IMG/VR virus record: IMGVR_UViG_3300037418_000950
Direction: 5' to 3' (one strand)
From: a virus
Taxonomy: Duplodnaviria; Heunggongvirae; Uroviricota; Caudoviricetes
DNA length: 64,000 nucleotides
Part shown: positions 8,998 through 64,000 of the stretch, piece after piece
How positions within the stretch are numbered: the stretch's first letter is position 1
Layout of the letters: each line of letters begins with the position of its first letter
Notes under the pieces: model-generated
Told to the model about the DNA's origin: nothing
What the model saw: the letters and a program-made list of their open reading frames with translations, nothing else
Databases searched by the model: none
Made by a program: the position numbers and the translations under genes

Positions 8998-8998
8998 G

Positions 8999-9423: not shown

Positions 9424-9476
9424 GTGAGTAAGTTCCCTCGGTTGAAGTCACATGATAACAAACTTTGAGTTACTTT

Positions 9477-9854: not shown

Positions 9855-9857
9855 TTC

Positions 9858-10923: not shown

Positions 10924-11005
10924 ATGGAGCCCTGGACAGGAATCGAACCTGCATACTCCGATTACGTCGTTGACGACCGCTTAGAAGGCGGGGACGATAC
11001 CAGGG
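10924..11005 (-). tRNA. tRNA-Arg(TCT)-like, non-canonical (no D-arm)
   Basis: Perfect acceptor GCCCTGG/CCAGGGC, discriminator T, encoded CCA, T-arm GCAGGTTCGATTCCTGT, anticodon hairpin CCGC-CTTCTAA-GCGG. Only 7 nt lie between acceptor and anticodon stem, and a 23-nt extra region with a CGTC-AAC-GACG hairpin precedes the T-arm. Confidence 0.45.
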
Positions 11006-11016
11006 CGTAGTCGTAT

Positions 11017-11262
11017 TTATTTCGGCACTAAGCCTACTTCACCTGTAAGTTTGTCGAACGTCACACGGTAGGTTTGCACATTATGCTGAACCCAACCTTG
11101 TTTTACCAACTTGGCTTCACGCAACCTTCGAAATTCATCCAATGAGACTTTCAACGGCGGCAGCACGTCGTCGGTGCGTTCGGTTGGAAACAGTTTGGCG
11201 ACTGGTACAGTCGCAAGTCCAACCCCGAGCCCGAACAGAGCCCGTCGCGTTACTTGTTCCAT
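11017..11262 (-). CDS. small Tat-signal secreted protein
   Basis: Start at internal Met giving MEQVTRRALFGLGVGLATVPVA (twin-arginine motif TRRALF plus hydrophobic core); ATGA overlap with the upstream gene stop. Confidence 0.5.
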   Translation of the reverse strand: MEQVTRRALFGLGVGLATVPVAKLFPTERTDDVLPPLKVSLDEFRRLREAKLVKQGWVQHNVQTYRVTFDKLTGEVGLVPK

Positions 11263-11918
11263 CACTTTTGATCCCACTCTATGGCTTTTTCCCAATTGGG
11301 TTTGCCCACGTCCCCCGAGGGCAGCGATTCGGCCTTTACAGGTTCGACGATGACTTCACAAATCATGTCCTTAGTCAAACGCTGATTTGCTCCACACTTC
11401 GGTAATTGTTGGCATGTGTTATTTTTGTCAAGGTATGTTCCGTCCCCGCAACGCACGGTCGGCGCGCTATTGGCAGGCGTTGAATTGTGGCTGAACATGT
11501 ACGACCAGAACCAGATATCCCACCAAGACGTTGAAGGGGCTTGGTAAACTGGCGCGTGATAGTAATAGTCGTTATATTGATAACCAGGGGTTGTAGTATA
11601 CAGCGGACGCACGCGATAAAGTGGAGCCGTCTGAACGCGGGGGGCAGGCTGAACCGCTGGCGAGGGTTGGACCCTTGGGGTAGGCTGGATTCGCGGCCTT
11701 GGAGCAATTGTGGGGCTTGGGGATGCCTTGGGCATCGGACGGACCCGTAGCGAACTTCCGAACGACGACGATGGACGGGAAAAGGATGTTGACGGTCGAG
11801 AAAAAGAACGGGAACTGAATGAGCCGAAAGACCTTGCCGCCGCGTGGGCGTCGGAATACCAGAGCCCGAGGCAGCAAACCGACACAAAGACGGCCAGTGA
11901 AAAATTCAGAAGTTTCAT
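11262..11918 (-). CDS. secreted Ser/Pro-rich repeat protein
   Basis: 218 aa; Sec signal peptide MKLLNFSLAVFVSVCCLGLWYSDAHA, Ser-rich SFSRPS repeats, Pro repeats PRPRIQPTPRVQPSPAVQPAPRVQ, C-terminal 4-Cys domain. Confidence 0.55.
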   Translation of the reverse strand: MKLLNFSLAVFVSVCCLGLWYSDAHAAARSFGSFSSRSFSRPSTSFSRPSSSFGSSLRVRPMPKASPSPTIAPRPRIQPTPRVQPSPAVQPAPRVQTAPLYRVRPLYTTTPGYQYNDYYYHAPVYQAPSTSWWDIWFWSYMFSHNSTPANSAPTVRCGDGTYLDKNNTCQQLPKCGANQRLTKDMICEVIVEPVKAESLPSGDVGKPNWEKAIEWDQK

Positions 11919-12028
11919 GGTGTATGTCCCCCATTACATGCTGTAGAAGGTGGCCCTCTGTACGAGACTCGAACTCGTTTCGCGGCATGGACAGTGCCAT
12001 ATAATAACCCATATAAGAACAGAGGATT

Positions 12029-12250
12029 TTAGCGGTGTGTATCGCGATCCGTTGCAAGGTAGCGCTTCAGTGACTTGTCGTAGGTCATCGCGCTCGGAAA
12101 CTTCTCCTGATAGAGACGCAAATCAGCCGACGCTTGCGGTCTACTGATGCTGAACTTCTTCATCAAGTGTTCCCTATTTATGAACCCGAAAATGGATAGA
12201 GTTTCGGTAATCCAGTCCATGCGCGCCTTCTGGAACCAAGTGTCTTTCAT
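12029..12250 (-). CDS. hypothetical protein
   Basis: 73 aa ORF. Confidence 0.4.
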   Translation of the reverse strand: MKDTWFQKARMDWITETLSIFGFINREHLMKKFSISRPQASADLRLYQEKFPSAMTYDKSLKRYLATDRDTHR

Positions 12251-12516
12251 TGATCAATCTCAACCATGAAGTCTTCTTTGAAGACGGAAGCCCCGTATAC
12301 TTTGGCAATGAAGCGATAGGCTTCGAAGGCGAAGTCACGCATCACACTTGGCAGGTGAATAAATGACATTGCTCCAATGAAGTTTCTGGCCGTTTCACGT
12401 AATAGGCAATCACCAATCTTGCCGTCGCGTTCAAGTTGTTCCCAATCGAGAATCAGTTGCCGAATGTCACCCAGCGGCATCACTTGAACCATGTCACGAA
12501 TGTTACTCATGGGCAT
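12247..12516 (-). CDS. hypothetical protein
   Basis: 89 aa ORF, 4-nt overlaps with both neighbours. Confidence 0.4.
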   Translation of the reverse strand: MPMSNIRDMVQVMPLGDIRQLILDWEQLERDGKIGDCLLRETARNFIGAMSFIHLPSVMRDFAFEAYRFIAKVYGASVFKEDFMVEIDQ

Positions 12517-30164: not shown

Positions 30165-30464
30165 TCAGATATCATCCCAATCATCGTTGCCCATCTTTGA
30201 AGAAACTTTCTTTTTACGCGAAGATGTACTACCAACACAGAGGTTTTCGTCATGGTACTTGATCGGGTCGGCACTCATTTCTATCAAGCTTTCTTCCGCC
30301 ATCTGAATGGTAGTCTCAATAGTGGCTATCTGTTGCTTCCATGCGGCGATATTTTTTAGAACCTGGACAGCCGCAGACTTGACGCGTTCTTTCTTACTCT
30401 CCAACGCGTCACGTTGTTCCTTGGCTATCTGTGCCTTCGCTTGTTCCACTACATCGTCTATCAT
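30165..30464 (-). CDS. hypothetical coiled-coil protein
   Basis: 99 aa, heptad-like charged sequence. Confidence 0.4.
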   Translation of the reverse strand: MIDDVVEQAKAQIAKEQRDALESKKERVKSAAVQVLKNIAAWKQQIATIETTIQMAEESLIEMSADPIKYHDENLCVGSTSSRKKKVSSKMGNDDWDDI

Positions 30465-30891
30465 TGTTGCTCCAAATTACACTCATATCAGCTTCGCGGT
30501 AGTAGGGTCCTTTGAGAATCTTGCCGTCTTCACGTTTGACGACTTCGCCGTTGGGACCGATCTTGGACATGTTGCTGTCATTGACAGCCCTAAAGGCTAC
30601 GTCAGCGTTGATCCCCAGGGCACAGTCGGTGCCGTAGGTCACAACTTTTAGATCGGCCGATTCTTTGGCGATCTTCTCAAGATCAAATTCGACTTCGATT
30701 GGTTCAAGTTCGACTGTAATTATCGCCTTGCAACCTTGCTCGTGAAAATAGTTGCCGTGAATCTCAAACCCAAGTTCGTAAAGAAGCTCTTTGCATTCTT
30801 CGAAAATCAGTTTCGCCCTAAGTAAGCGAGTCTCAGGGTCTCTTAAATCTGGTGTCTCAGGATCAGGGGTGCCACCAAACCTCTTATGCAT
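30409..30891 (-). CDS. MazG-like nucleotide pyrophosphohydrolase (all-alpha NTP-PPase), tentative
   Basis: 160 aa; RLLRAKLIFEECKELLYEL helix pair resembles the MazG/HisE catalytic core. Confidence 0.4.
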   Translation of the reverse strand: MHKRFGGTPDPETPDLRDPETRLLRAKLIFEECKELLYELGFEIHGNYFHEQGCKAIITVELEPIEVEFDLEKIAKESADLKVVTYGTDCALGINADVAFRAVNDSNMSKIGPNGEVVKREDGKILKGPYYREADMSVIWSNNDRRCSGTSEGTDSQGTT

Positions 30892-34960: not shown

Positions 34961-35325
34961 TATATTTCTCCTGAAAGAACTTCATCGATGTGTCTGATGG
35001 TTTCAAATTTGTCTTCCGCGTCCTTATTCGCGAACGTACCGAATATGTGATCGAATTGGGATCGGTCTATGCAAAAGAACTTTTGAGCCACTCTACAAGG
35101 GGACGAATCTCCTTGATACTCAGGCCAAATCATATTCCCTCGGCAGTCACCTATTAATCCTTCATTTTGAAGGGAAGGGCATTGGGTCGCCCAACCCAAT
35201 GCACAAGCCTTGACTACATGGCTCTTGATTTCATCGAAGAACCCGTACCCACGTTGCCAATATTTGTCCGCGGGCACTTCATCCCGTAGGAAGTTGCGCA
35301 GGATCGTCAGTCGCCGTTCGTCCAT
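34960..35325 (-). CDS. hypothetical protein
   Basis: 121 aa ORF. Confidence 0.4.
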   Translation of the reverse strand: MDERRLTILRNFLRDEVPADKYWQRGYGFFDEIKSHVVKACALGWATQCPSLQNEGLIGDCRGNMIWPEYQGDSSPCRVAQKFFCIDRSQFDHIFGTFANKDAEDKFETIRHIDEVLSGEI

Positions 35326-35983
35326 CGAACACCTTTCGTTCTACAATCAGATCGGGGATTCGCTTCAAGGCGTCCGCGTAGAAACTGGACGCACCACTAA
35401 GCTCTTTCGGTTCGCCGCCCGTCCAGGCAACCCGAGTAGCTTCGCGATAGAAGTCTTTCATGAAGGCATAGTTGAGGAGGGTAATCGTGGGGTCCCACAC
35501 TCGCCACAGACTACCTTTCTGAAACTTAATATACCCCAGAATAGCTTTGGGGTCAATAGTACCAGCTACAGCACAGGTACCTAGTGTGGCCAAAGAGTCC
35601 TCATAGGTAAAGCTACCCGAGTATTCCAAATCGGGGGCGAGCCTACGGAACTTGTTAGTCCGTCGCCAGATATCTTTGGTATCCAGAATTTTGATTTTGT
35701 TTTGAGCGCGATCCACCTGTTCGATGGCGTCTTCATCGGCCATGATCAGATTGTCGAAACGGTCGGTGTCCACCGCAATGACGACAGGATTATTGTCATC
35801 GTCCTTGCCATTCGTGCCCCATGCAAAGTACGGCGCGTAACTATCCGAGAGATAGACACGGTTGCGGTCGGACTGAACGGTATGGGCAAAGTTGCCCTTG
35901 TGCTTGCTGAACCTGCGAGGTAGGAGTCCATGCTTCAAGATGGACTCCAGGTACTTGCCAGAGGTGCCGTGAAAGAGTTGCAT
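35279..35983 (-). CDS. hypothetical protein (start at MQLFHGTSGKY)
   Basis: About 234 aa; FHGTS, YLSDSY, EYSGSF blocks; no confident family. Confidence 0.4.
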   Translation of the reverse strand: MQLFHGTSGKYLESILKHGLLPRRFSKHKGNFAHTVQSDRNRVYLSDSYAPYFAWGTNGKDDDNNPVVIAVDTDRFDNLIMADEDAIEQVDRAQNKIKILDTKDIWRRTNKFRRLAPDLEYSGSFTYEDSLATLGTCAVAGTIDPKAILGYIKFQKGSLWRVWDPTITLLNYAFMKDFYREATRVAWTGGEPKELSGASSFYADALKRIPDLIVERKVFDGRTATDDPAQLPTG

Positions 35984-35984
35984 G

Positions 35985-36260
35985 TTACTTCTTGTCCTTT
36001 CCGAACAGAAAATCCAGTGCGTGTGCGCCGCCTGCATGAAGCATGTAACCACAACCTTTTTCTTCAAGGTTGGTGACGTGATTGCATTCCTCACACTTGC
36101 CCTTCGTGTACAGAAGGTCTTCGTCAACAATCGTTTGGCGAGCCCCGCACTTTTCACAGGTAAATTTCTGAAAGAAGTGACAGTTGTTGTTGAGTAGGTC
36201 TAGGCACTCAGCAACAATTTGTTCAAACGGTTTGTCGCCAGGGGTGATATCAGCCATCAT
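35985..36260 (-). CDS. small zinc-ribbon protein
   Basis: 91 aa; CEKCG...CEECN; strong RBS AGGAGAATACATG; downstream of the promoter at 36287-36314. Confidence 0.45.
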   Translation of the reverse strand: MMADITPGDKPFEQIVAECLDLLNNNCHFFQKFTCEKCGARQTIVDEDLLYTKGKCEECNHVTNLEEKGCGYMLHAGGAHALDFLFGKDKK

Positions 36261-36314: not shown

Positions 36315-36392
36315 GTCTGTTACAAAGGTGAAACAATTCAAAACCTTATTCATCTAAATAGTGTGGTTGCAACCTTTTTCCTTAGGACTCCG

Positions 36393-37409
36393 ATGCTTAC
36401 TCTGAACAATAAAATGATCAACAAAGACAAGCTCTATGTCATAGCTTGTGTCTCCAATCCTGAACGCTACAAACGCCGTTGGGAGCTTTTCCAACAATTC
36501 CAACGCCACATGCACGACGTTGAGGCCAACCTTATCACCGTCGAAATTGCCTATGGAGCCCGTTACCCTCAGGTCATCGAAGGTAAGTATAGCTTCTGTG
36601 ATACCAAGACCTTGCTTTTCCGTTCCGAGGAAGAACTTTGGCACAAGGAAAATATGATCAATCTCGGCATCCAATTCCTAACCCAAATCGATCCCGATTG
36701 GGATGGTGTCTGTTGGATTGACGCCGACGTTCATTTCCAACGCCACGACATTATCGAGGAAACGGCCCATCAACTCCAGCATTACGATGTCGTGCAGATG
36801 TTCAGCCACGCCATCGATTTGGACCCCAACTATCGGCCCATTCGCAATAATAACGGCTTTGTGTACTCGTGGTTTCAAAACAATTTTGAGCCGCCGCGGG
36901 GTGCGGGCCATGGCGGATACTATGGGGCGGCGAAGGGGGAATTCTGGCACCCTGGATATGCCTGGGCGGCGCGGCGCAGCGCCTTGGACCAAATCCAGCT
37001 TCTGGACAAGGCCATCCTAGGGGCGGGTGATCATCATATGGCACTCGGACTCATTGGGCAAGCCAAACGTTCGTTACCCTATGGAGTGTCGAAGGGTTAC
37101 CGTGATATGGTCATGCAATGGGAGGAACAGGCGTCGGTGTTGAAACAGAACATTGGCTACGTGCCAGGAACCTTGACGCACTATTGGCATGGGTCAAAGT
37201 CGAAACGGAAGTACATCGAACGTTGGAAGATCATTACCGACAATCAGTATGATCCTGTGAAGGATTTGTCGCGCGAGCCCTCAGGTATCTATCGCCTGAA
37301 CATGAACCATGGCGCGCGGTCGATTAAACTGCGCAATCAAATTCGGGCATACTTTCAACAACGCAACGAAGACTGCATCTATACCGAAAACGAAGTCTAC
37401 AAGATTTAA
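36393..37409 (+). CDS. GT-A-like glycosyltransferase (DxD), tentative
   Basis: One of three plus-strand genes called. Start at ATG with AGGA RBS (MLTLNNKMINKDKLYVIACVSNP...); WIDADVHF DxD-type motif; about 339 aa. Confidence 0.45.
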   Translation: MLTLNNKMINKDKLYVIACVSNPERYKRRWELFQQFQRHMHDVEANLITVEIAYGARYPQVIEGKYSFCDTKTLLFRSEEELWHKENMINLGIQFLTQIDPDWDGVCWIDADVHFQRHDIIEETAHQLQHYDVVQMFSHAIDLDPNYRPIRNNNGFVYSWFQNNFEPPRGAGHGGYYGAAKGEFWHPGYAWAARRSALDQIQLLDKAILGAGDHHMALGLIGQAKRSLPYGVSKGYRDMVMQWEEQASVLKQNIGYVPGTLTHYWHGSKSKRKYIERWKIITDNQYDPVKDLSREPSGIYRLNMNHGARSIKLRNQIRAYFQQRNEDCIYTENEVYKI

Positions 37410-37816
37410 GCCTTGTTGAGCTTCAGATGTTTCGAGTGAATCTTGCAGCCAATGAAGTTGTTATAGAACTTATCAGGATGATATAGCACTTCGCGATTGA
37501 TTTGCTCCTTCGCTTCAAGTAGCGCCATTTCCCCTTTAGTACGACATAGATGTAGGATTTCTCTCTTGAAATCGCCACGCGAAGAAGCTTGTAAGTCAGC
37601 CAAAAGAACACTGTTAGAACCAAAATATTGCTTCCAATCAGATTCAGACGTGACGGACTTTCGTCGTGTTTTTCCTTTGACTTTGACTTTTTTCGTTGAA
37701 TAGAAGTTTTTCTTGCCAACGTACTGCCTGCCAGTTTTGAGGTTGGTTATAATGTATACAAAACCAACTACATTGGGCGGCACGTCATCCAATTCACTTC
37801 CGATATAAATCCACAT
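37406..37816 (-). CDS. GIY-YIG domain endonuclease (small)
   Basis: 136 aa; VVGFVYIITNLKTGRQYVGKK matches GIY-...-YIG. Confidence 0.6.
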   Translation of the reverse strand: MWIYIGSELDDVPPNVVGFVYIITNLKTGRQYVGKKNFYSTKKVKVKGKTRRKSVTSESDWKQYFGSNSVLLADLQASSRGDFKREILHLCRTKGEMALLEAKEQINREVLYHPDKFYNNFIGCKIHSKHLKLNKA

Positions 37817-38286: not shown

Positions 38287-38622
38287 TTATCTGCGACCTG
38301 GATCGGGAACGTCGTCCTGCATTTCTTGATCGGTCATCCAACGGCCTTGATCATAGTGCCAGTGGCGACGGTCATAGAGATTGAGGATTAACGTCAACCC
38401 AAGCAATTGAAGCTCTAACTTTGGTCCCGCGTGATCCTGATAGAGCCAATAATTAAAATTGATACCGATAATCGGGAAACAACCTCCCCAGAGACCCTTA
38501 TCAAATTGGATAGAGAATGCCTTGTTTTTGGTGATCAGTTCATCCCAATAGAAAATTGAATCTGACCAACTGTTTTTTTCTTTCTTCAAAGGCCATTCAA
38601 GTCCGAAACTGAAATTGATCAT
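38287..38622 (-). CDS. hypothetical aromatic-rich protein
   Basis: Start at internal Met (MINFSFGLEWPLKK...) placed by the ATGA junction with the DUF488 gene. Confidence 0.35.
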   Translation of the reverse strand: MINFSFGLEWPLKKEKNSWSDSIFYWDELITKNKAFSIQFDKGLWGGCFPIIGINFNYWLYQDHAGPKLELQLLGLTLILNLYDRRHWHYDQGRWMTDQEMQDDVPDPGRR

Positions 38623-39173
38623 AGCAATTGTCCTTGTGTCGGTGGGTAAGTCAGTTCGGTGCCGTTGACGAGCGCGAACGAAGTCAGCTTGCGCGGCTTG
38701 GCGTTGCTTTTCGAGAATATCTCGATCACGGGCACGTCGCGGATCACCAGCGCATCCGAGACCAACGACCGATGGCATCGCCACGGCACGGCTTCGGCAC
38801 ACATGATCGCCACGTTATTCCTCTGACCCAACTTGATCAGTTCGGTAAGGCCAGATTGAAATTCGGGTGTCTGCATGTAGTCCGCGTAGGCGCGGAACCC
38901 GCCGTTACGCCAGCCTGTGTTGGGGGAGTTGTCGCAGCAACGCCGTTTCCGATGCCCGCCAAGGCGTGGCAAATGCGTATATCGTATTCCGAGCGAAGGC
39001 AAGGTAAACTGTAGGGCGTCTTTGTTGTATTGCGGGCAGTAACGGGAACTTGGCGCACTGCGAATGTCCGCCAGCAAGTTTATATCGTAGGCTTGCAGCA
39101 TTTCTACAAAGGTTCCGAACGGATGGTTCGAATGCCCGATTGTAAAAATGGTTCCCGTCTCGTACTCCATCAT
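38619..39173 (-). CDS. DUF488 family protein
   Basis: 184 aa; IFTIGHSNHPFGTFVEMLQAYDINLLADIRSAPSS matches the DUF488 N-terminal signature. Confidence 0.6.
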   Translation of the reverse strand: MMEYETGTIFTIGHSNHPFGTFVEMLQAYDINLLADIRSAPSSRYCPQYNKDALQFTLPSLGIRYTHLPRLGGHRKRRCCDNSPNTGWRNGGFRAYADYMQTPEFQSGLTELIKLGQRNNVAIMCAEAVPWRCHRSLVSDALVIRDVPVIEIFSKSNAKPRKLTSFALVNGTELTYPPTQGQLL

Positions 39174-39182
39174 GTCACCCTG

Positions 39183-41417
39183 TTAGATGAAGCAAGAAGC
39201 TTCACCACGTTCGTTGACGCCGACACATGCCGCGGCTCCAGTCGTATCGATATCGGTGAACTTCTTTTCTGTAAGTTCGTTGATCCAATCGATATCAACC
39301 ATGGTCTGTTGTATCTTGAACCATTTGTGAAGTAAAGATACATCCTTCAGGCAATACTCAGCTTGTTTTAGGTCAGAATCAAAATAGTTATTAGCAAAGT
39401 TTTTGAATCGTCTAACCCAATCTAACTTCAGGGCATTTTCGGCGTCTACGACTTCCAAGTTTTCTCCGATGCCCGCCGCTGTGTTACAGGCCAGCCACAG
39501 GTTGTCGAAAATCTTGTTGGCATCCACAATCAATCCAGAGGCGAAAATCGCCCCCGAGCCATAGAGCTTGACAATGTCTTCGGCAACGCGGACCTTGGTG
39601 TTCGGAGCCTGGAAATAATCCTTGTCGCCCGTGTCGGCAATGAAGGAAATGCCCGCAAAGTACCGACGATTCTTGAACACGTAGTCCTGGACGGCATCCC
39701 AATCATCAACCGAAATGGTATTCGAGACGTTGTGTCGAACGGTTTTATTGACACAAAGGTCAACGTCGGTGCCAGATTCAACCCAATTCTGTTGCGCCAG
39801 CTTGACCAACTCCAGGTGCTTGACACCCTTGATTTCATCCTTGAACAAGGCGCTTGGATTGGATACCACGGGGAAGGAAATCACATAGTCATTCTTGCTC
39901 GATGACCATGCCGACTCCTCAATCATCCATGGGTTATTCTTGAGCATAAGCTGTGCCACCTCATTATCCTTGGAGATTTGGATATTGCGGATGTACATCG
40001 GCGCGTGCTCGGGATGGATACCCGATGGTGTCTTGAGAAGCACCGAGGCGTTGCCCGATGGCTTGACACAAGTCGTTCGCGCCGCGGGGTTGATCCCGAT
40101 TAGGGCGGCGATACGTTTGTTGGTCGCCAGGACTTTCTTGGCTCCCTTGCGTAGCACCGTTTCATCGAACAAGACTTGCGGGTTGGCCATCCAACCCGTG
40201 ATTGAGACCCCAATCAAGGATTCGCGTTCGAAGATTGCCTTCGACGTTGGGGGCAGGAAGGTGAAATTGGTATAGCCCGCTTGCAAGGTGCAGAGGATCG
40301 CCGCCGCCTCACAGAGTTGAAAGAAGTTGGCCGCTGTATCGCATTGCGAGCCATTGATTTCCGACAGGTTGCATCCCTGCCAACCTGTGATGCCATCCAA
40401 TTGTGGGAACATGCCGATTTCGACACAGGGATTGAAACAGGTTTCCAGATCGTCGGAAAAGATGAACCCAGGTTCGCCAAACTGGCGGGTACGGGCAAAC
40501 AGTTCGGCAAATTGTTCCTTAGTGATTTGATCACGCACAAGAATGGCGCTATTGTTGGAACGTGCCCGTTGCGGATTTGTAATTAGCCAATTGCCTGTCT
40601 TTGCATTCATCATGTCTTCGTCGTCCACCGAAAACAGACAGATGGTTGCCGACCGACGCACGCCGCCTGAAATGACGGCATCCATGGCGTGCATAACAAT
40701 ATCGTAGACTTGGATCGGCGTCAGCTTGGCGGGCGACTCACCCTTCTTCTTGGGAAGCGTGATGCCTTGCAGAATGTATTCGATGCGGTCCAGCGCCATA
40801 CGCAACGGATCGGGACCAGGGGCTTTGAAGCCACCGCTGATTTTGGCACCCTTGGGGCGAATTTGGCTTAGATCGAAGTAGACGCGATGGCCGCGATATT
40901 CGGGGAACTTCGGGCTTTCTTCGAAATAGGATGCCAGCAAGGCATCAAGAGCATTGGCCCAACCCTCAATCGAGTCTTCAACGACGTGGACCTTGGGAGC
41001 CTTGGTGCGTTGGATAATAGCGGGGAGCTTGGCGACGTGGTGCTTCTGAACTGAGAACCCTGCTCCGCAACCACACAGGGCAATGTAGAATATTTCACCA
41101 AAGAATTCGGGACGGTCGGCGTAGGAAGACGTACAGTTATACATCTTCATCGGGTGCTTGAGGATTTGTTCACCGCCGAATTGGAGCGCCCGTTGCGCGC
41201 CCAAGACACCCTTGGATTTGTAGATGGTGGTAGCGAAATAAATAGCTTCCTCCAGTTCAGGAGAAAGCTTGTCCTTATAGTAATCCCGATGCATCGCCAT
41301 GACGCGATCTACGGCTTCTTCCCATGTTTCATATCGTTCTAATTCGTCGTTATATCTCGAATATCCTTCATAAAACTTACTTTGCGAGAGCATTTCTCGC
41401 GAATCCTTAAACAGCAA
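39183..41417 (-). CDS. nrdJ: class II (adenosylcobalamin-dependent) ribonucleotide reductase, monomeric type
   Basis: 744 aa single polypeptide; NPCVEI active-site Cys motif. Confidence 0.75.
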   Translation of the reverse strand: MLFKDSREMLSQSKFYEGYSRYNDELERYETWEEAVDRVMAMHRDYYKDKLSPELEEAIYFATTIYKSKGVLGAQRALQFGGEQILKHPMKMYNCTSSYADRPEFFGEIFYIALCGCGAGFSVQKHHVAKLPAIIQRTKAPKVHVVEDSIEGWANALDALLASYFEESPKFPEYRGHRVYFDLSQIRPKGAKISGGFKAPGPDPLRMALDRIEYILQGITLPKKKGESPAKLTPIQVYDIVMHAMDAVISGGVRRSATICLFSVDDEDMMNAKTGNWLITNPQRARSNNSAILVRDQITKEQFAELFARTRQFGEPGFIFSDDLETCFNPCVEIGMFPQLDGITGWQGCNLSEINGSQCDTAANFFQLCEAAAILCTLQAGYTNFTFLPPTSKAIFERESLIGVSITGWMANPQVLFDETVLRKGAKKVLATNKRIAALIGINPAARTTCVKPSGNASVLLKTPSGIHPEHAPMYIRNIQISKDNEVAQLMLKNNPWMIEESAWSSSKNDYVISFPVVSNPSALFKDEIKGVKHLELVKLAQQNWVESGTDVDLCVNKTVRHNVSNTISVDDWDAVQDYVFKNRRYFAGISFIADTGDKDYFQAPNTKVRVAEDIVKLYGSGAIFASGLIVDANKIFDNLWLACNTAAGIGENLEVVDAENALKLDWVRRFKNFANNYFDSDLKQAEYCLKDVSLLHKWFKIQQTMVDIDWINELTEKKFTDIDTTGAAACVGVNERGEASCFI

Positions 41418-41973
41418 CCTTATTTCCTTTTTTTAGTGTAGTCTTTTTGTTCATCCAATTATATAATCTTCCAGAAACAAATCCGTCTGGTCTTTCTATA
41501 GCTCTTACATTGATGGTTCCGTTATTCCACCATTTAGTTTTACTTACTCCAATTGATACAGCTTTCTTCCATTCGTCATTTAATGACCCTCGCTTATTTC
41601 CCATTTGACCTTGAGAAATGCGCGCCCTATGAATTTCACTTTTTGGTTTTCTATATTTGGACGTATCTTTAATTTTCCACCGTTTGCCTAAAGCGGGTTT
41701 CTCAGGTGGTAACGCACCTCCAGGTGCTATATTCCAACCAATTTTATCTCTTGGTCGAAATAACAATTCTGCCGCTAAACAATCGTTTTCTGACCCTTCA
41801 TACACGATATTAAGTTTTATATCGTCGTATTTTGCAATTGCAGATTTGATAATAGGGTTCACACGACTCTGCGCATGTTCAGTTAAACGTCTATCAGTGT
41901 TAGCGCTTATACCGACGTATCCTTCGCTCCAAATACTTGTATGAAAACTTCGTCTAATCCAATAGACAAACAA
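41407..41973 (-). CDS. GIY-YIG homing endonuclease
   Basis: 188 aa; VYWIRRSF...GYVGIS N-terminal GIY-YIG, basic C-terminal DNA-binding region; overlaps the nrdJ start by 11 nt. Confidence 0.65.
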   Translation of the reverse strand: MFVYWIRRSFHTSIWSEGYVGISANTDRRLTEHAQSRVNPIIKSAIAKYDDIKLNIVYEGSENDCLAAELLFRPRDKIGWNIAPGGALPPEKPALGKRWKIKDTSKYRKPKSEIHRARISQGQMGNKRGSLNDEWKKAVSIGVSKTKWWNNGTINVRAIERPDGFVSGRLYNWMNKKTTLKKGNKVAV

Positions 41974-41992: not shown

Positions 41993-42565
41993 TTATTCTT
42001 GGGTCACTTCATTCTCCATCACCCATTCAAATATTTCGTCGATATTTTCTTTATCAGTGCCGTCCAATACCTGAAACATGATGAAGTGTTTTTGAAGTTT
42101 AGCGAAGGCGCGAGCATCGATTATTTTAGCTTCGTCTAAGCTTTGATTGCGCCCGTTGGGATCGTATTCCTTTACGCGCGTGAGATAGAAGATTTCGTTG
42201 TCGAACTGCATGAACGTCTGATCAAAAAAACGACGCACCAGATCGGTATATTCAGGGGTGAATATACTGAGGTCTTTCAGCTTGTCGATATAGTGATCAA
42301 AGTAGATGGAGCTTAGGAGTAACGGCGAATCCGTCACCACATAAGATACCTTATTTAGGAGCCGAAATTGACGACGGAATTGTTCGCTGAAAACGTGTAT
42401 CTGATTTTCCAGGAGCTTCTGAGTGCCTTCCCAAGTCGCTTCCTTGGCATACTCGGTGACAAGTTCGCAGGAGATTTTCTGTTGCTTGAGACGACTAAAA
42501 AGGCCCGTGGCGACTGTTGATTTCCCAACACCAGGGCCTCCCATAAGATTAATTATTTTCGTCAA
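41993..42565 (-). CDS. P-loop (deoxy)nucleotide kinase, tentative
   Basis: 190 aa; Walker A LMGGPGVGKST at the N-terminus; sits within the nucleotide-metabolism gene cluster. Confidence 0.5.
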   Translation of the reverse strand: MTKIINLMGGPGVGKSTVATGLFSRLKQQKISCELVTEYAKEATWEGTQKLLENQIHVFSEQFRRQFRLLNKVSYVVTDSPLLLSSIYFDHYIDKLKDLSIFTPEYTDLVRRFFDQTFMQFDNEIFYLTRVKEYDPNGRNQSLDEAKIIDARAFAKLQKHFIMFQVLDGTDKENIDEIFEWVMENEVTQE

Positions 42566-42839: not shown

Positions 42840-43159
42840 TCGATAACCTCATGACCAATGTCTGGACCCCAATCAATTTCGTTTTTGGCTTCGTCGATTG
42901 TTTGCAGGTGCTTGCGAATGTAGCGCATGAACAGCATGGCGCGATCCTTGGCCAGGAAAACCCCGTCGCCCGTGTCGTCAATCGGCACAGGAAACTCAAA
43001 GCCGTCTTCGGTTGCATACCAGAGTTCTTTGGCGCGGTAGAATTTGAAGAAGACTTGCTTGTCATTCTTCACCATATCGATAAGTTTCATCATACTTTCC
43101 AAAAAGGTACTTGAGCTTCTTTGAACATACTCAAAGCGGTTTCTATGTTGTCTTTCCAC
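42836..43159 (-). CDS. hypothetical protein
   Basis: 107 aa ORF. Confidence 0.4.
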   Translation of the reverse strand: MERQHRNRFEYVQRSSSTFLESMMKLIDMVKNDKQVFFKFYRAKELWYATEDGFEFPVPIDDTGDGVFLAKDRAMLFMRYIRKHLQTIDEAKNEIDWGPDIGHEVIE

Positions 43160-43515
43160 TTGGCGTAGAATTCTTCAGGCACGGAGTTGGGAATGATGAC
43201 TTCCTTGATACCCGCCTGAATGATTTGAACCGCACATCGTTCGCAAGGATACATCGTGCAATAGAGACGATACCCGCGCACAGGTTCGTGTGCCGCGAGG
43301 ATGGCATTTATTTCAGCATGGATGGTGTACTTGAGTTTGGTTTCGCGATCATGGACGGTTGAATCGTTCATGCCGCGCGGGTACCCATTGTATCCCGTCG
43401 AAGCGATGGTATTGTCTGGACGAACGATTACGCAACCGACTTTCGAACTTGGGTCCTTGGACCAAGTTGCAATCAAGGCCGCCACATCAAGAAAGCGTCT
43501 ATCCCAATTGGTCAT
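43090..43515 (-). CDS. dCMP deaminase
   Basis: 141 aa; HAEINAI and PCERCA zinc-binding motifs of the cytidine/deoxycytidylate deaminase family. Confidence 0.85.
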   Translation of the reverse strand: MTNWDRRFLDVAALIATWSKDPSSKVGCVIVRPDNTIASTGYNGYPRGMNDSTVHDRETKLKYTIHAEINAILAAHEPVRGYRLYCTMYPCERCAVQIIQAGIKEVIIPNSVPEEFYAKWKDNIETALSMFKEAQVPFWKV

Positions 43516-43674: not shown

Positions 43675-43926
43675 TTACCACCGCATCCAACTTTTCAACC
43701 AGTCGAGTTTAATTCGAATACGCCCATACCAAGTGGTGTCATCGGGCTTTTCGGATGGAATAAATCCCGAGTCCATGCCAGCATGTTCGAAGTTCTTGAG
43801 CCAATCCTGTTCCCGCGACAGGCGGGCGTCGAATTCCTCGGGTGTCTCACCCCAACCAAGCTCCTTCCACCGCTTCATCTGTTCAGGTGTGAGTTTGACG
43901 GGTTTGTCTTTATCGTCGGGTGTCAT
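43675..43926 (-). CDS. hypothetical protein
   Basis: 83 aa ORF. Confidence 0.35.
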   Translation of the reverse strand: MTPDDKDKPVKLTPEQMKRWKELGWGETPEEFDARLSREQDWLKNFEHAGMDSGFIPSEKPDDTTWYGRIRIKLDWLKSWMRW

Positions 43927-44572
43927 TTATATCTTCCCAAATTGTTGCGGCTTGTTTCAGAGGATCGTTTGCTTTCCAAATCGCTGAACCGATGACGATT
44001 TGATCAGCGCCTTTCTGAAACGCTTCATAAGGGTTCATGGTGTACGCATGACTGTCATCCGACTGAGAAGTGAAACGGATGCCAGGAACAATCTTTTTCA
44101 ATCTTCGCGGAAGCGTCATATGTAAACAGCTTGGGGCGACGACCGCTGCATTGAAGCCGCGGCAGTCAGCAAATTCATCGCCGCCAAATTCAGCCCAATG
44201 ACGTTCGGCATCTTTAACGTCACCGTTGCTACTCAGATGCACGACGGCGACCAATTCTGTGAAATGGGAAAGTTTGTCTACGTCCTGTTTGGACAGTGCG
44301 TCATAACGAACCGTGATGTACTTAAAGGCTCGGTCTTCGGTCAAATGTAAAATGGTGTTCCGAACCGTGCTTGGAACATCCCACAGTTTCAAGTCAAGGA
44401 AGATATCCTTGTGCATTGCCCGAATGTATTTCACCACGGCCCAAAAGTATTGTGATGAATAGAGCATATGCCCAAGTTTATATACGTCGGTAAACGGGTC
44501 CATGGCTTCCACCATCTTGATCGCTTCCCGTTCGCTTGTGGTGTCAATCGCAATGATCATTTTGTCATTCAT
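43910..44572 (-). CDS. orotidine-5'-phosphate decarboxylase (PyrF) homolog
   Basis: 220 aa; IIAIDT, DVYKLGH, DIFLDLKLWDVPSTV, KIVPGIRF, DQIVIGSAI align block-for-block with E. coli PyrF (VVVALD, CRLKVGK, DIFLDLKFHDIPNT, LVTPGIR, DYMVIGRPV). Confidence 0.65.
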   Translation of the reverse strand: MNDKMIIAIDTTSEREAIKMVEAMDPFTDVYKLGHMLYSSQYFWAVVKYIRAMHKDIFLDLKLWDVPSTVRNTILHLTEDRAFKYITVRYDALSKQDVDKLSHFTELVAVVHLSSNGDVKDAERHWAEFGGDEFADCRGFNAAVVAPSCLHMTLPRRLKKIVPGIRFTSQSDDSHAYTMNPYEAFQKGADQIVIGSAIWKANDPLKQAATIWEDINDTRR

Positions 44573-44862
44573 TTTGGCAGACTCGGAGTTGCGGTGAAGG
44601 TCGTCTCAACATGAGCATGAAGAAAGTCGTCCATCACCAACGGTACGGTCACGTACACGTCGAGGACAAACTTGTGGGCATCCACTTCCTTGACGGTATT
44701 GTTAGTACCGTCGCAGATGGTCTTCCACTTCACATCAAAATAGGGAGCGTATTTGTCGGCAAGCTCTTTGACAACTTTGTCAACTTGAGACTTGACCTGT
44801 TGCTGTAGTATAGCAGATTCCAGCTTAAAAACAATCGAAATCAGGCCATCGGTTGTGCTCAT
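44569..44862 (-). CDS. hypothetical protein
   Basis: 97 aa ORF. Confidence 0.4.
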   Translation of the reverse strand: MSTTDGLISIVFKLESAILQQQVKSQVDKVVKELADKYAPYFDVKWKTICDGTNNTVKEVDAHKFVLDVYVTVPLVMDDFLHAHVETTFTATPSLPK

Positions 44863-45566
44863 TCTATTTTATCCATATAAAACATAGTTCCATCATCTAA
44901 CATCCGTTTGATTACTCGTCTATGCACCCCTAACAGACGGCTTGCTTCTCGGAAAGACCGATATACCACAGTTCCATCAGTAATCTTTTTACTAAAAGGA
45001 TTCGCTTCGATCATTGTGTCTATATTGACTACAGCTTTTCGATTTTGACTAATAAGTTGTAGGCTTTCCTTAGTATGTTTCTTACCATACATACCATTAT
45101 TTTCTGGGTCACACTGTCCCCGTTGGCGTCGCGTGGCCACCATTTTGTCCGTTTGCTCTTTGGATTTTCGCTTCTTCCAATGAACAGACTTTTCGCCAGA
45201 CACATTTTCGATCATAGCTTTCCTATGAATCTGATATAGGCGCGAACTATATCGATTAGGATGTAATTCGCTTTTGGCCATTGAGAAAAAAGCATAAGTC
45301 ATCTTATAAATGTGCCGTTGGTCTATGCACATCTTGGGTAATAACAGATGACAAATATAATGTTCTCGTGGAGTTAGGAGAACCAAATTTCTCTTGTCGT
45401 TGCTCCCCCCAAGAGATTTTGGTATAACGTGGTGTCTTTCATAAACTCCACCGTCGCCTTTCTGACGATCCTGTCTTTGAGCGTAATCGATGATAGCGAA
45501 ATACCAAGTATAATACTTACCTTGCTTAAACACAGACAATTTTCCTTTTTGTCTGTATTTAGGCAT
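44859..45566 (-). CDS. HNH homing endonuclease
   Basis: 235 aa; ERHHVIPKSLGGSNDKRNLVLLTPREHYICH core plus basic C-terminal region. Confidence 0.7.
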   Translation of the reverse strand: MPKYRQKGKLSVFKQGKYYTWYFAIIDYAQRQDRQKGDGGVYERHHVIPKSLGGSNDKRNLVLLTPREHYICHLLLPKMCIDQRHIYKMTYAFFSMAKSELHPNRYSSRLYQIHRKAMIENVSGEKSVHWKKRKSKEQTDKMVATRRQRGQCDPENNGMYGKKHTKESLQLISQNRKAVVNIDTMIEANPFSKKITDGTVVYRSFREASRLLGVHRRVIKRMLDDGTMFYMDKIE

Positions 45567-45589: not shown

Positions 45590-46204
45590 TCACGAGTTCA
45601 GTTTGTCCAACAACACTTGGGCTTTCTTCGGCAGCGTGAAATCGGCAACCTTCACGTCATGGTCGAAGACTGCGATGCTATCGCTTGCTCGCGCCTGTAG
45701 ATAGCGATTGGCAGGAACGGTATTCTGTTCGTTCAAGCGCCAGACATAGGCAGAAATAGCGGCATACCATTTGCCGTCTTCTTCGATAGTGACAGCCCAA
45801 ATTTCATGGGCGGCGAGGCCAGCAAAAGCTTCGGCATCGGCACAGACGCGCGTGTCTTGCTTCTCAAGTTTATAGGTATATTTCAATTCAGTTTCTCCAT
45901 TTTGGATTGTAGCAATAAATTCAGGACTTGGGGGAGCCATAGGTGAACCCCCATCCATTGATGTGGTGTCTTCCCATTTATAAGTAGCAGGTTCAGCAAG
46001 AGATACAGGTTCAAACTCGCCTGTGCCACCAGATGTTACTGTTGGGAAAACAGTTTTTTCCCCAGCGACATTAGTCATGGTGATACCATCAGGTGTCACT
46101 TCAACCGACCCTGATTCAGGATGTGTTAAAGTGATTTTAGGAGGTGTATGATCAATTTCTATAGATGGTTTGGTCGTATCGATTACTCGTTTGTCGTCAG
46201 TCAT
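45590..46204 (-). CDS. hypothetical protein
   Basis: Start at MTDDKRVID (internal Met) to avoid a 119-nt overlap with thyX. Confidence 0.45.
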   Translation of the reverse strand: MTDDKRVIDTTKPSIEIDHTPPKITLTHPESGSVEVTPDGITMTNVAGEKTVFPTVTSGGTGEFEPVSLAEPATYKWEDTTSMDGGSPMAPPSPEFIATIQNGETELKYTYKLEKQDTRVCADAEAFAGLAAHEIWAVTIEEDGKWYAAISAYVWRLNEQNTVPANRYLQARASDSIAVFDHDVKVADFTLPKKAQVLLDKLNS

Positions 46205-46922
46205 AGCATTCCTCCAAAATAACTTCGAACATTTCTTGATAACGAATTGATAACTTCTCGATATCCAACCCCCTGAAAAACGAGAATTGGTCTTGGATGA
46301 TTCTCCAACATTCATGAGCTATTTCGCGATGCTCCTTTTGGGTTCCAGGATGACAACGCACCAGACAATAATGAAACCATGATCGCAGGGAGCCTTTCAT
46401 ATACATAGTGCTCGGGGTCAACCCCTCGGGTAAGACGGCACGGGCTTGTTCTTTGGCAATATCGAGTGAGATAGCCTCTTTGTAGATCGCGGCCGCTTTA
46501 TCGTAAACTTGCCATTGCATCCTATTCCAACGATCTTCTAAAAATTGATCCTTGGTAGGTATAGAGTTTTGTCGATTGTGTTTATCTTGCAGGCGACATT
46601 CGCGAACCTGCATGTTATCATCGCAGACTTCGACTTCGGCATAGCGTTGGCTGAACTCTTGGAATGAGAAGGATCGGTGCCGCAGAATCTGGCGACCGAT
46701 ATCGCGCGTTGTTTTTATCTCCATAGTCAAGTCCACCATTTCAAAGGGTGAGACGTGTGACTTCTTTAGGAGATACTGAATAAGCTTTTCAGATGTTTCG
46801 AAATTTGTCTGATTGACAGGGTTAGAAACGCGCGCCGTGTAAGAGATAAGTTCTTCGGTTGTCTGCGGATCATCATCAGTATAGGTAAACGGTTCAGTCT
46901 TACTTCTTAGGATAACTTTCAA
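46197..46922 (-). CDS. thyX: flavin-dependent thymidylate synthase
   Basis: 241 aa; RHRSFSFQEFSQRY ThyX signature (RHR...S.R.Y). Confidence 0.85.
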   Translation of the reverse strand: MKVILRSKTEPFTYTDDDPQTTEELISYTARVSNPVNQTNFETSEKLIQYLLKKSHVSPFEMVDLTMEIKTTRDIGRQILRHRSFSFQEFSQRYAEVEVCDDNMQVRECRLQDKHNRQNSIPTKDQFLEDRWNRMQWQVYDKAAAIYKEAISLDIAKEQARAVLPEGLTPSTMYMKGSLRSWFHYCLVRCHPGTQKEHREIAHECWRIIQDQFSFFRGLDIEKLSIRYQEMFEVILEECYD

Positions 46923-48136: not shown

Positions 48137-48185
48137 AAAAAACTCAGTATAAATAGTGGTGTCACAACAAAACGGGCACCGCTTA

Positions 48186-48767
48186 ATGTATTACATTTAT
48201 AAAATTACAAATACAATAACCAATAAAGCATATATTGGCTTTACACATGATCCCAAAGAAAGATGGTCAAATCACCGAACAGATTATAAACGAATAAATC
48301 GACCATTATACAATTCTATGAAAAAACATGGGCGCGATGTTTTTACATTTGAAATTATCTATGAACATGAAGATAGGCGTCATACACTTGTTGAAATGGA
48401 GCCTTATTACATTGAGCTATATGATTCATACAACAATGGATATAACTGTAACAGAGGAGGATTAGATACTAATACAGACGAAATGCGCCGTAATACGTCA
48501 AATCGAATGAAAACAAACAATCCAATGAAAATTCTTCGGACAAATAAAGGATCATTTAAGAAAGGAGAAAGTCGCGGACCAGATTCAGAAATCACTCGCG
48601 AAAAAAAGCGAGTAACAAAATTAGGAACCAACAATCCTAATTTTGGGAACCCAAATGCAGGCGCACATCTTAAAATCAAGCGTGCATGTTCCAAGTGCGG
48701 AACTATTACCACACCTGGAAATCTAAAAAGATGGCATGAAGAAAATTGCCAACATCGTAAATTATGA
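48186..48767 (+). CDS. GIY-YIG homing endonuclease
   Basis: MYYIYKITNTITNKAYIGFT GIY-YIG, Asn/Lys-rich NUMOD-like C-terminus; the ORF track extends it to a GTG at 48156. Confidence 0.8.
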   Translation: MYYIYKITNTITNKAYIGFTHDPKERWSNHRTDYKRINRPLYNSMKKHGRDVFTFEIIYEHEDRRHTLVEMEPYYIELYDSYNNGYNCNRGGLDTNTDEMRRNTSNRMKTNNPMKILRTNKGSFKKGESRGPDSEITREKKRVTKLGTNNPNFGNPNAGAHLKIKRACSKCGTITTPGNLKRWHEENCQHRKL

Positions 48768-61919: not shown

Positions 61920-64000
61920 TCAGAAAAAATCCTCTATTGAGTGTTGTTTCTGAGTTCCCCAACCTGCCACATCAAGCAAGGATTTCATTGGATTCAGAAA
62001 CGTGGTTTCAAACATGTCATGGCGATCCACATAAGGGTCGATTGCCAATTCTTCGGGGAAGGCTCCATCGGGAGCCCCAATAACTTCTTGTTTCAATGGA
62101 TTGAATTTCATCAAATGAAGATACTTTATTTTATCACCATTATGGAATTTTCGATACTTCGAAGTTAGGTTTTTGTCCGCTAAAAATTTATTGTAGAGGA
62201 TCGCAGCCTTCACCGCCTTGGGAGCCTTGGGCTTCCAATTGAAATTCGGCAGTTCGTATTTGGTGTAATCCTTGACCGAAGTCGGCCGCCCTATCTCAAA
62301 CAACGATAAGGTCATATATTCTTCGCGGAAGTCGGCAATTAATTTCTGGACCGCCGCTTCCCCTTCCGAGAACATCAATTCCAAGCCTTGCTTGATCTTC
62401 TTGCGACATACCTCGGGGGTGTTGGATCGAACAGGTTCCAAGCCCGTGATCTTGAGTTTAGGCGTCTTGAAGCGCACGCCCTCTTGATCCCATACCCAAG
62501 CCGCATAGTTCTTCTTCTTGCGCCAGAGAGCCTTTTCAATGATGCTTTCCCGCTTCATGTGGAGGGCATTCTTGTAAGCGTTTAGATCGCCTGTAAACTC
62601 CACAAACGACGCCTTGATCACGTTGGCCAATTCACCAGCGCAGAATTTGTCAAGGGCGTTGATGATTTCAGTTCTATCTGTCAAACCAGATGAAAGAACG
62701 AAATTTCCCAATTTAATATAAACGCTATCAGTATCAGAAGCGATGATATAATCAGTATCAGTATGAAATTTGGCATTGAGGAATTTGTTGATCCGTTCGG
62801 CAATAAATTTGATTACAGCCTGACCCGTGTAAGTGACAGCACGAGCATTGTCGATATTGTAAAACTTGAAGAAAGGGTTCGCAACGGCACCATAACAGGA
62901 GTTGAGTTGGATTTTCTTGCCGTATTGATAGTTATCATATTTGGTAATTTGTTCTTTGAGGGATTCGTCTTTGGTTCGTTCATACTCACGTTCCAACTGC
63001 AACATCTTGTCTTTGTAGGACTTGCGAAGGGCAAACTGTTCCTCAATCACGTCGGCCAGAAAACCACGAATGGAATTATCATAGAGGGCACCGTTGCCCG
63101 CCAACCCGTAGTTCTTTTCCTTTAGCGTCTTGGCATTGTAGCGCCCCGCCAAAATGTCTTCGTCGTCCAACTCCAGGACGCCACGCAAGGTCTCGGGTGA
63201 GATATTCCAGCCGATCATGATGTGGGGATACAGCGACGTTAAGTCGAAGGAGACAACCCAATCGAACATGCCGATTTGCGGGTCTTTGACGAACGCACCC
63301 TTTAACTCTTGGCGCTCGGCCTTCTTCGGCAAAGGCATCACGATATTCTTGGGCATCAGTTTGTTGAGACAGATGCATTCCCAAAGGAGCACGGACGATA
63401 GGGCGTCTTCGTAGTTCACCTTGGCGTCGTAGGCGACGACAATCGAGCGCTCGATATACTTGAGTTTCTTTTCGAGATTATGAACCAGTCGCGTGTCGTG
63501 GATGTTGTATTCGATATACAGTTGGGGGTTCTGTTCCCAGAGTTCATCGAGGTTGCGATATTGCGACGTATCTACCTTGGTTTCTTCAAGCTCATAGTAA
63601 CAGATGTTATTCAGCGAATAGCTATCGCGTTGACCGATGGCGAACTTCTTGTAGACGCGCATGTAGTCGAGATTGGCGATGCCTTCAATGATCCAATCGA
63701 CATAGGTTTTATACTCGCCGCCGACGAACTCTTTGTGCTCGCGACGACGGATGCGCTTCCATGGCGACAGACACAGGGCCGTATCCCATCCAAACAATTC
63801 ATCGATGCGAAGGATAATCATTGGGATGTCGAAGGTGTCGATATTCCAACCCGTGATAATATCAAGATCGAGCTTTTCCCAAAGTCGCATGAACTTTTGG
63901 AGCATATCCTTTTCGTCATCACAGAGGAAAAAGACGACGTTGGGATCAGTGTTATTGAAGTCTTTCCAAGATAGGACATACGTCTTATCTCCCTTTTGAA
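61920..64000 (-). CDS. family B DNA polymerase (partial; N-terminus beyond window edge)
   Basis: ExoII-like GWNIDTFDIPMI, motif B KIQLNSCYGAVAN, motif C IIASDTDSVYIKL; reading frame stays open to the window end. Confidence 0.85.
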   Translation of the reverse strand, partial: QKGDKTYVLSWKDFNNTDPNVVFFLCDDEKDMLQKFMRLWEKLDLDIITGWNIDTFDIPMIILRIDELFGWDTALCLSPWKRIRRREHKEFVGGEYKTYVDWIIEGIANLDYMRVYKKFAIGQRDSYSLNNICYYELEETKVDTSQYRNLDELWEQNPQLYIEYNIHDTRLVHNLEKKLKYIERSIVVAYDAKVNYEDALSSVLLWECICLNKLMPKNIVMPLPKKAERQELKGAFVKDPQIGMFDWVVSFDLTSLYPHIMIGWNISPETLRGVLELDDEDILAGRYNAKTLKEKNYGLAGNGALYDNSIRGFLADVIEEQFALRKSYKDKMLQLEREYERTKDESLKEQITKYDNYQYGKKIQLNSCYGAVANPFFKFYNIDNARAVTYTGQAVIKFIAERINKFLNAKFHTDTDYIIASDTDSVYIKLGNFVLSSGLTDRTEIINALDKFCAGELANVIKASFVEFTGDLNAYKNALHMKRESIIEKALWRKKKNYAAWVWDQEGVRFKTPKLKITGLEPVRSNTPEVCRKKIKQGLELMFSEGEAAVQKLIADFREEYMTLSLFEIGRPTSVKDYTKYELPNFNWKPKAPKAVKAAILYNKFLADKNLTSKYRKFHNGDKIKYLHLMKFNPLKQEVIGAPDGAFPEELAIDPYVDRHDMFETTFLNPMKSLLDVAGWGTQKQHSIEDFF

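Follow-up and report, generated by a model that had tools for sequence, protein, structure and literature searches.

The stretch of DNA analysed here, referred to as the window, is the 64,000 nucleotides of IMG/VR virus record IMGVR_UViG_3300037418_000950, a virus of the Caudoviricetes, and its minus strand carries at 43910..44572 an ATG-to-stop open reading frame (ORF) for a 220-residue protein of the orotidine 5'-monophosphate decarboxylase (OMPDC; PyrF) family. A reading made from the letters of the DNA alone (the sequence-only reading) had proposed a phage-encoded OMPDC/PyrF homolog within a cluster of deoxynucleotide metabolism genes, and this is upheld by PF00215, TIGR01740, Foldseek and the neighbouring genes. 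Family membership is clear: the PF00215 OMPdecase profile matches with E=6.6e-23 (82.2 bits, the cut-off being 27) and covers positions 2-220 of the 221 in the profile. On profile scores the equivalog status is borderline, the pyrF model TIGR01740 being passed narrowly (95.6 bits, cut-off 92.3) and the stricter equivalog models being missed (NF001273, 97.8 bits against 193; NF010386, 68.6 against 208). PDB sequence and profile searches return OMPDC chains alone among the best 60 matches. The AlphaFold2 model, built on a 48-sequence alignment, has a predicted local distance difference test (pLDDT) value of 91.4 and a predicted template modelling (pTM) score of 0.90, its weakest part being the loop at residues 171-180, and the first Foldseek match to it in the PDB is the B. 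subtilis OMPDC 1dbt_A (E=6.6e-15, template modelling (TM) score 0.81). Of the 50 Foldseek matches listed, 49 can be recognised as OMPDC from the entry name or the sequence of the chain, including 8dop, 8doq and 8ek7, which are OMPDC chains filed under another entry title; the exception, 2yyu, was deposited as "uncharacterized". The protein is an OMPDC-family (beta/alpha)8 barrel, with a homology far beyond chance.

Residue conservation was read from an alignment of the protein with 263 relatives, the PyrF proteins of E. coli and Staphylococcus, and the E. coli 3-keto-L-gulonate-6-phosphate decarboxylase (KGPDC; UlaD), and residues were counted in the 10 members of a phage clade described below versus 254 relatives outside that clade. 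Yeast URA3 was aligned as well, with a numbering that agrees with the published residues D37, K59, D91, K93, D96, T100, S154, Q215, Y217 and R235. Asp10, the ribose-binding and catalytic-network residue at the end of strand 1 (44543..44545, minus strand, as are all residues of this gene), aligns with yeast D37; Lys32 at the end of strand 2 (44477..44479), a position held by Glu in KGPDC, aligns with K59; and the catalytic DxKxxD motif at the end of strand 3, D60-L-K62-L-W-D65 (44378..44395), aligns through D60, K62 and D65 with D91, K93 and D96. All five residues are found in 10/10 clade members, and D10, K32, D60, K62 and D65 in 253, 254, 254, 254 and 251, respectively, of the 254 other relatives. 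Thr69, the contact to the ribose 2'-OH from the partner subunit (yeast T100), and Ser114, the pyrimidine contact (yeast S154), are also invariant in the clade, and Trp64 within the DxKxxD motif is specific to it, the relatives having mostly His, Tyr or Phe. The protein also fits the PROSITE-style OMPDC pattern. Because the catalytic, ribose and base residues are invariant in 10 members that share only ~40% identity, purifying selection on catalysis is indicated, and the catalytic core of the phage protein is predicted from the alignment to be intact. The three strings quoted in the sequence-only reading are all present, i.e. DIFLDLKLWDVPSTV at residues 56-70 (44363-44407), KIVPGIRF at 160-167 (44072-44095) and IVIGSAI at 192-198 (43979-43999). 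Its claim that every PyrF signature block is in place holds for the catalytic set and the PGIR loop and fails for the phosphate block, in which the defining Arg is Ser196; the Arg of the bacterial gripper loop is Tyr177.

Textbooks cite OMPDC as an example of enzymatic proficiency, and much study has gone into its phosphodianion gripper (yeast Q215, Y217 and R235), whose binding energy activates catalysis. In the phage protein IVIGSAI stands where OMPDCs carry "(V/I)VGR(P)I", with G195-S196 instead of G-R. Ser196 (43985..43987) takes the place of the G-R Arg (yeast R235, B. subtilis R215); the position is Ser in 10/10 clade members and Arg in 253/254 relatives, and the Arg is present as well in the PyrF proteins of E. 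coli and Staphylococcus, in a viral PyrF-like protein from contig L014 (L numbers denote the compared loci) and even in UlaD. The H175-A-Y177 segment of the gripper loop (44042..44050) has His for the usual Gln and Tyr for the bacterial Arg. Position 175 is His throughout the clade (10/10), against 210 Gln and 43 His among the 254 relatives, and position 177 is variously Y, V, F, G, L or S across the clade and Arg in 218/254 relatives, which carry the bacterial "DQxR". Yeast too has a Tyr in this loop (Tyr217), the register of the loop against yeast being ambiguous by one residue. The P163-G-I-R166 loop after strand 7 (44075..44086) is retained, and Arg166, which aligns with B. subtilis Arg185, appears from the alignment to be the sole phosphate-site Arg kept and the sole cationic phosphate ligand remaining. 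The residue correspondences to B. subtilis Arg185, Gln194 and Arg215, which have phosphate-site roles, are from the PDB alignment. No new invariant Arg or Lys was found in the 10-member clade, the new clade invariants being His35, Tyr38, Phe43, Trp64, Trp126, His175 and Ser196, with Phe or Trp at position 199, where Thr is usual elsewhere. The G-S-A-I-F segment presumably resembles the ordinary phosphate-binding loops of other ribulose-phosphate-binding barrels, and weak PdxS matches fall over residues 185-215.

The clade that shares these substitutions is small. An exhaustive HMMER scan of 1.84 billion representatives gave 2,625 homologs, only five of them with E<1e-30 and the next at 6e-20, and a profile search of 5.8 billion clusters placed 10 clusters in the clade, after which the bit score falls from 274 to 123. 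Both Ser196 and His175 are found in all 10 clusters, and by these sequence measures the group is marked as a distinct, well-separated OMPDC subfamily. All members with readable flanking DNA lie on phage contigs, and the ORF is intact at all clade loci. L007 carries a 68%-identical copy and L009-L013 and L023/L024 carry copies of ~42% identity, the latter two sets belonging to the same broad phage group as the window (ribonucleotide reductase (RNR) 87%, DUF488 protein 92% and kinase 66-72% identical); L001-L007, L009-L013 and L023/L024 share a syntenic gene order. L008 and L017 are phages otherwise unrelated to the window group. Among 50,697 deposited phage records tblastn found five matches, 24-27% identical, of which the three inspected are host chromosome and none of these three a genuine counterpart. 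The inspected records, OR846607.1, OM373555.1 and CAKLQH020000011.1 (L018-L020), are filed as phage and hold host pyrK-pyrD-pyrF-pyrE or rpsA-cmk-himD-pyrF segments, likely as contamination or misassignment; OR846607.1 and OM373555.1 are labelled UNVERIFIED. The significant matches in BFVD include no protein of a bacteriophage, and those that carry a name are UMP synthases of giant viruses and related proteins of such viruses.

The genes of the window are nearly all on the minus strand, as is the OMPDC-family ORF itself. The start of the 220-residue ORF shares an ATGA with the stop of an upstream, translationally coupled 97-residue ORF (44569..44862, minus strand), which related phages carry in synteny at 64-85% identity and which has only weak, probably spurious, PHROG matches. 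Its 3' end overlaps the start of a downstream 83-residue ORF (43675..43926, minus strand), syntenic in relatives at ~60-64% identity and without a family in Pfam/PHROG-type scans. Such overlapping starts and stops are the arrangement expected of an operon. No PHROG family matches the OMPDC-like protein, and the PHROG search gave nothing meaningful for the 97-, 83- and 57-residue neighbours or for a 204-residue gene nearby. In guanine-plus-cytosine (GC) content the gene (46.9%) equals the window (47.0%). Records of the identical protein exist on at least six contigs; the six that were recovered come from six different samples and show one and the same order of phage genes. The gene is thus a resident phage gene.

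The surrounding genes concern deoxynucleotide supply. The dCMP deaminase (43090..43515, minus strand; PF00383, E=5e-24) lies downstream with only the 83- and 57-residue ORFs between. Also on the minus strand are ThyX, the FAD-dependent thymidylate synthase (46197..46922; PF02511, E=1.9e-38; TIGR02170, 146.9 bits against 87.9), a P-loop kinase (41993..42565), which matches AAA_28 as well as a PHROG whose annotation is thymidylate kinase, and a class II (B12-dependent) RNR (39183..41417) closest to the RTPR model TIGR02505 (E=2.6e-55, under the cut-off), a model of the monomeric ribonucleoside-triphosphate reductase. The cluster as listed in the sequence-only reading is therefore confirmed for the deaminase, ThyX, the kinase and the RNR, and of its two MazG-like genes one was verified among the ORFs scanned (30409-30891, PRA-PH). 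An HNH/NUMOD3 homing endonuclease gene (44859..45566, minus strand) occupies the site that in relatives holds a HAD_SAK_2 phosphatase or another gene; the phosphatase gene is found directly upstream, or one gene upstream, of the OMPDC-like gene in L007, L009/L012 and L023/L024. Downstream of the class II RNR, and directly next to it, is a DUF488 protein gene (38619-39173) that is 92% identical in L013 and RNR-adjacent also in L001 and L009; the two products may act together. In L013 (3442-3693) and L009 the dCMP deaminase appears to be cut to a 37-residue fragment, 97% identical to the window gene, and the deaminase would thus be dispensable or decaying in a lineage that retains the OMPDC-like gene.

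ThyX, or ThyA in L009, lies two to three genes from the OMPDC-like gene in the group of the window, and in L008 the start of the OMPDC-like gene overlaps the stop of a canonical ThyA (9219-10004). One syntenic position, upstream of the 204-residue gene, is filled by ThyX in the window, L007 and L024 and by canonical ThyA in L009 (151-978), an exchange between closely related phages that on gene position and family assignment is a non-orthologous displacement. ThyA of L008 and ThyA of L009 both score above the thymidylate synthase equivalog cut-offs. Since ThyA and ThyX interchange at one locus, and both pass equivalog cut-offs, they point to ordinary thymidylate synthesis and not to modified thymidine; a modified-thymidine pathway, also considered, is unsupported. 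The neighbourhood would thus be an ordinary module for the supply of deoxythymidine triphosphate (dTTP). After the clade member, L008 has a Gpt-like phosphoribosyltransferase gene and a PTPS/QueD-like gene (10641-11099 and 11543-12004), which hints at purine or 7-deazaguanine metabolism beside ThyA and the PyrF-like gene. This phosphoribosyltransferase was considered as a PyrE candidate and rejected, being xanthine/guanine-phosphoribosyltransferase-like (69 bits against NF006613, under the cut-off) and having no homolog in the window.

The phage itself is, to judge by its genes, a distant T4-like myovirus. Its family B DNA polymerase (61920-63905) is ~40% identical to gp43 of cyanomyoviruses, and the window also encodes a RecA/UvsX-like protein, a DnaB-like helicase and a primase. 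The polymerase ORF starts only part-way through its exonuclease domain (at position 146 of the 242 in the Pfam profile), so the N-terminal part must be encoded separately or past the end of the window, and a split gp43 is a possibility. A search for contigs that would lengthen the window, made with the genes at its ends, gave none or only pieces shorter than 2 kb. Seven tRNA genes (Ser, Glu, Asp, Met, Ala, Asn and Gly), all on the minus strand, are scattered over 935-33146. Megablast of 12 kb around the OMPDC-like gene against the 50,697 deposited phage records gave no match. Genes of homing-endonuclease type are dense in the nucleotide module (44859-45566, 41407-41973, 37406-37816 and, on the plus strand, 48156-48767) and one lies at 271-870; they are of the HNH/NUMOD3, GIY-YIG, SegE-like GIY-YIG and NUMOD3 types, a GIY-YIG gene abuts the 5' end of the RNR gene, and their presence and position vary among the near-identical L001, L002 and L004. 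A 348-residue ORF on the plus strand (36363-37409) has no Pfam family and is 94% identical to its L013 counterpart, the flanking genes being mostly 50-75% identical, and could have been recently exchanged or be mobile. A 292-residue protein (35279-36157) has a weak PARP catalytic-domain match (E=0.0018, under the cut-off) and might be an ADP-ribosyltransferase like T4 Alt/Mod.

From the family, the fold, the catalytic conservation, the clade-wide substitutions and the phage context that were observed, the reading favoured here proceeds to a substrate, a direction of flux and a kinetic effect of the altered grip. It is that the protein is a decarboxylase of orotidine 5'-monophosphate (OMP) to uridine monophosphate (UMP) that serves dTTP synthesis with a remodelled phosphate grip, and it is given a probability of roughly 55%. 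The dimeric (beta/alpha)8 barrel would convert OMP to UMP and CO2 through a network of Asp10, Lys32 and Asp60-Lys62-Asp65', the ribose would be held by Asp10, Lys32 and Thr69', and recognition of the uracil ring would fall to Ser114 and His175. The 5'-phosphate would be held by Arg166, by backbone amides of the "G-S-A-I-F/W" loop and possibly by His35 and His175. UMP would then be raised by host kinases to the triphosphate (UTP), the substrate of the class II RNR, and would lead, jointly with the product of dCMP deaminase, to deoxyuridine monophosphate for ThyX and the thymidylate-kinase-like P-loop kinase. A boosted UMP supply, which was the first suggestion of the sequence-only reading, is the most economical explanation, the adjacent ThyX/ThyA being canonical and the kinase matching a thymidylate kinase PHROG; by analogy with the pyrE gene of cyanomyophages, raising UMP for the dTTP line would be the simplest role.

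A number of observations weigh against this reading. The Arg that the clade has replaced by Ser is otherwise nearly invariant and is kept in cellular PyrF, in the L014 protein and in UlaD; the loop Arg at position 177 is lost as well, and no new invariant Arg or Lys compensates. Replacement of this residue in the yeast enzyme (R235A) destabilises the transition state by 5.6 kcal/mol, raises Km 700-fold and lowers kcat 15-fold, and the Q215A/Y217F/R235A triple variant falls in kcat/Km from 1.1e7 to 0.037 M-1 s-1 (PMC12874384). The stricter equivalog model NF001273 is not reached. The OMPDC-like protein has diverged fast, being 41-42% identical between the window and L009/L013 where the RNR is 87%, the DUF488 protein 92% and the kinase 72% identical. 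Finally, no pyrE partner was found in the window.

A real, though less likely, alternative is that the protein is a neofunctionalised OMPDC that has kept the decarboxylation machinery and the ribose and uracil contacts and acts on a substrate without a simple 5' phosphodianion or on another 6-substituted pyrimidine ribonucleotide. Orotidine, its 5'-di- or triphosphate, or a phosphodiester-linked orotidine would be candidate substrates, and the product would enter a pyrimidine pathway particular to the phage. Recruitment to a different substrate had been raised in the sequence-only reading; it stays alive because the near-invariant Arg is lost from IVIGSAI, a reason that the sequence-only reading did not give. 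The changes are coordinated, invariant in the clade and located exactly at the gripper (Arg to Ser196, Gln to His175, Thr199 to Phe/Trp, with the equivalent of R177 not conserved), and they are accompanied by the new invariants His35, Tyr38, Trp64 and Trp126, by the steep fall in bit score (274 to 123) and rise in E value (1e-41 to 1e-20) to all other OMPDCs, by the confinement of members with readable flanks to phage contigs and by the recurrent HAD_SAK_2 phosphatase gene upstream. Moreover the canonical Gln and Arg are both present in the PyrF-like proteins of L014 and L015, and therefore the Ser form is not simply the usual look of phage PyrF. However, no alternative substrate or partner enzyme is conserved across the lineages, the phosphoribosyltransferase of L008 is not PyrE-like, the window itself is without a HAD gene, and the canonical thymidylate synthases adjacent give nothing that points to modified DNA. 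A phosphate monoester could, furthermore, still bind, Arg166 being kept and the loop resembling the ordinary phosphate-binding type. A stronger form of the idea, held to be doubtful, is that this phage-only offshoot has abandoned phosphodianion-driven activation altogether and applies the C6-carbanion machinery of OMPDC to a different 5'-substituted or non-canonical pyrimidine ribonucleotide; if true, T4-like phages of soil and freshwater would have a pyrimidine pathway not described before, and their enzyme would be a natural test of what the gripper Arg does.

It is improbable that the protein is instead a catalytically weak or non-enzymatic derivative on the PyrF scaffold, such as a protein that binds nucleotides or regulates, or a metabolic gene in decay. 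In the yeast enzyme the residues lost account for 5.6 kcal/mol or more, the protein is the fastest-diverging enzyme of its module, and at 10 clusters in 5.8 billion it is rare; but all catalytic and ligand-contact residues outside the gripper are invariant at ~40% identity, the reading frame is intact at every locus and the model is confidently folded. Sugar-phosphate chemistry of the KGPDC or hexulose-6-phosphate synthase (HPS) type in a PyrF-like fold, a second suggestion of the sequence-only reading, is very improbable. PF00215 does also cover HUMPS, and there are weak N-terminal matches to the HPS/HxlA model TIGR03128 and the KGPDC model NF009832, but at 26.2 and 15.9 bits these are far under the cut-offs of 200 and 250, and no KGPDC or HPS is among the best 60 PDB sequence matches or the top 50 structural matches. 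The comparison of active-site residues with PyrF and KGPDC that the sequence-only reading had proposed finds the catalytic Lys and Asp residues not lost and Lys32 siding with PyrF: it aligns with the Glu of the "IIEVG" segment in E. coli UlaD, the Mg ligand of that enzyme, and because Lys and not Glu ends strand 2 such chemistry is not supported; KGPDC itself, moreover, retains the G-R Arg that the phage protein lacks. A host gene brought in by misassembly or contamination, of which the host segments among deposited "phage" records (three of the five tblastn matches, as inspected, two of them labelled UNVERIFIED) provide examples, is effectively refuted here by the presence of the identical protein, in an unchanged order of phage genes, on six contigs that were assembled independently, by relatives at syntenic phage loci, by the matching GC content and by the T4-like replication genes and homing endonucleases that flank the gene.

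An OMP decarboxylase with a remodelled grip would extend the nucleotide genes carried by phages to the final reaction of de novo UMP synthesis. A naturally selected clade with the whole catalytic core but with Ser for the gripper Arg would bear on the questions of how much of the mechanism is dispensable or substitutable, and of whether the scaffold has been retargeted. In the papers that were found, pyrF is named only in one 2026 virome survey, as a list entry without analysis (PMC13288924). The nearest functional parallel is pyrE, an established metabolic gene of T4-like cyanomyophages that is carried alongside thyX and other nucleotide genes (PMC9983427). It encodes the de novo pyrimidine step directly before PyrF, by a different enzyme of a different fold.

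Among viral proteins of the same family, the giant-virus proteins in BFVD share with the phage protein the viral OMPDC setting and are eukaryote-type fused UMP synthases. The PyrF-like genes of L014 (9983-10594) and L015 (~9980-10597), which are T4-like viral contigs of IMG/VR, are closer in kind; their products are 27% identical to the phage protein and keep the canonical DDQ...K/R and G-R residues, and the DLKLWDIP motif is common to them and the clade. In L014 the gene lies between Mre11-like (8786-9802) and Rad50-like (10587-12362) ORFs. KGPDC (UlaD/SgbH) and hexulose-6-phosphate synthase belong to the same suprafamily, with the same barrel and DxKxxD motif, but differ in having Glu for Lys32 and in keeping the G-R Arg.

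Bacterial PyrF, as in the B. subtilis (1DBT) and E. coli (1EIX) structures, shares with the phage protein the fold (TM score ~0.8), the length class, the Asp/Lys/DxKxxD set and the PGIR loop, and the alignment to 1dbt is gapless over residues 142-211, gripper loop included. A Ser/Thr base contact is also found at the matching position, Ser114 here and mostly Thr in the relatives. The differences are that identity is only 20-30%, that Ser196, Tyr177 and His175 stand for Arg215, Arg196 and Gln194 of the B. subtilis enzyme, that Trp64, His35 and Trp126 are specific to the clade, and that the middle region (helices 5-6) is ~15-20 residues shorter in the phage protein. The closest comparison for the altered grip is with the engineered R235A and gripper variants of yeast OMPDC (work of Richard, Amyes and Gerlt, reviewed in PMC12874384), in which the same side chain is absent (R235 corresponding to Ser196) and the gripper loop is altered too. 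Those variants are, however, laboratory mutants, whereas the phage change has been fixed by selection in 10/10 natural sequences, together with Arg166, which the yeast enzyme lacks.

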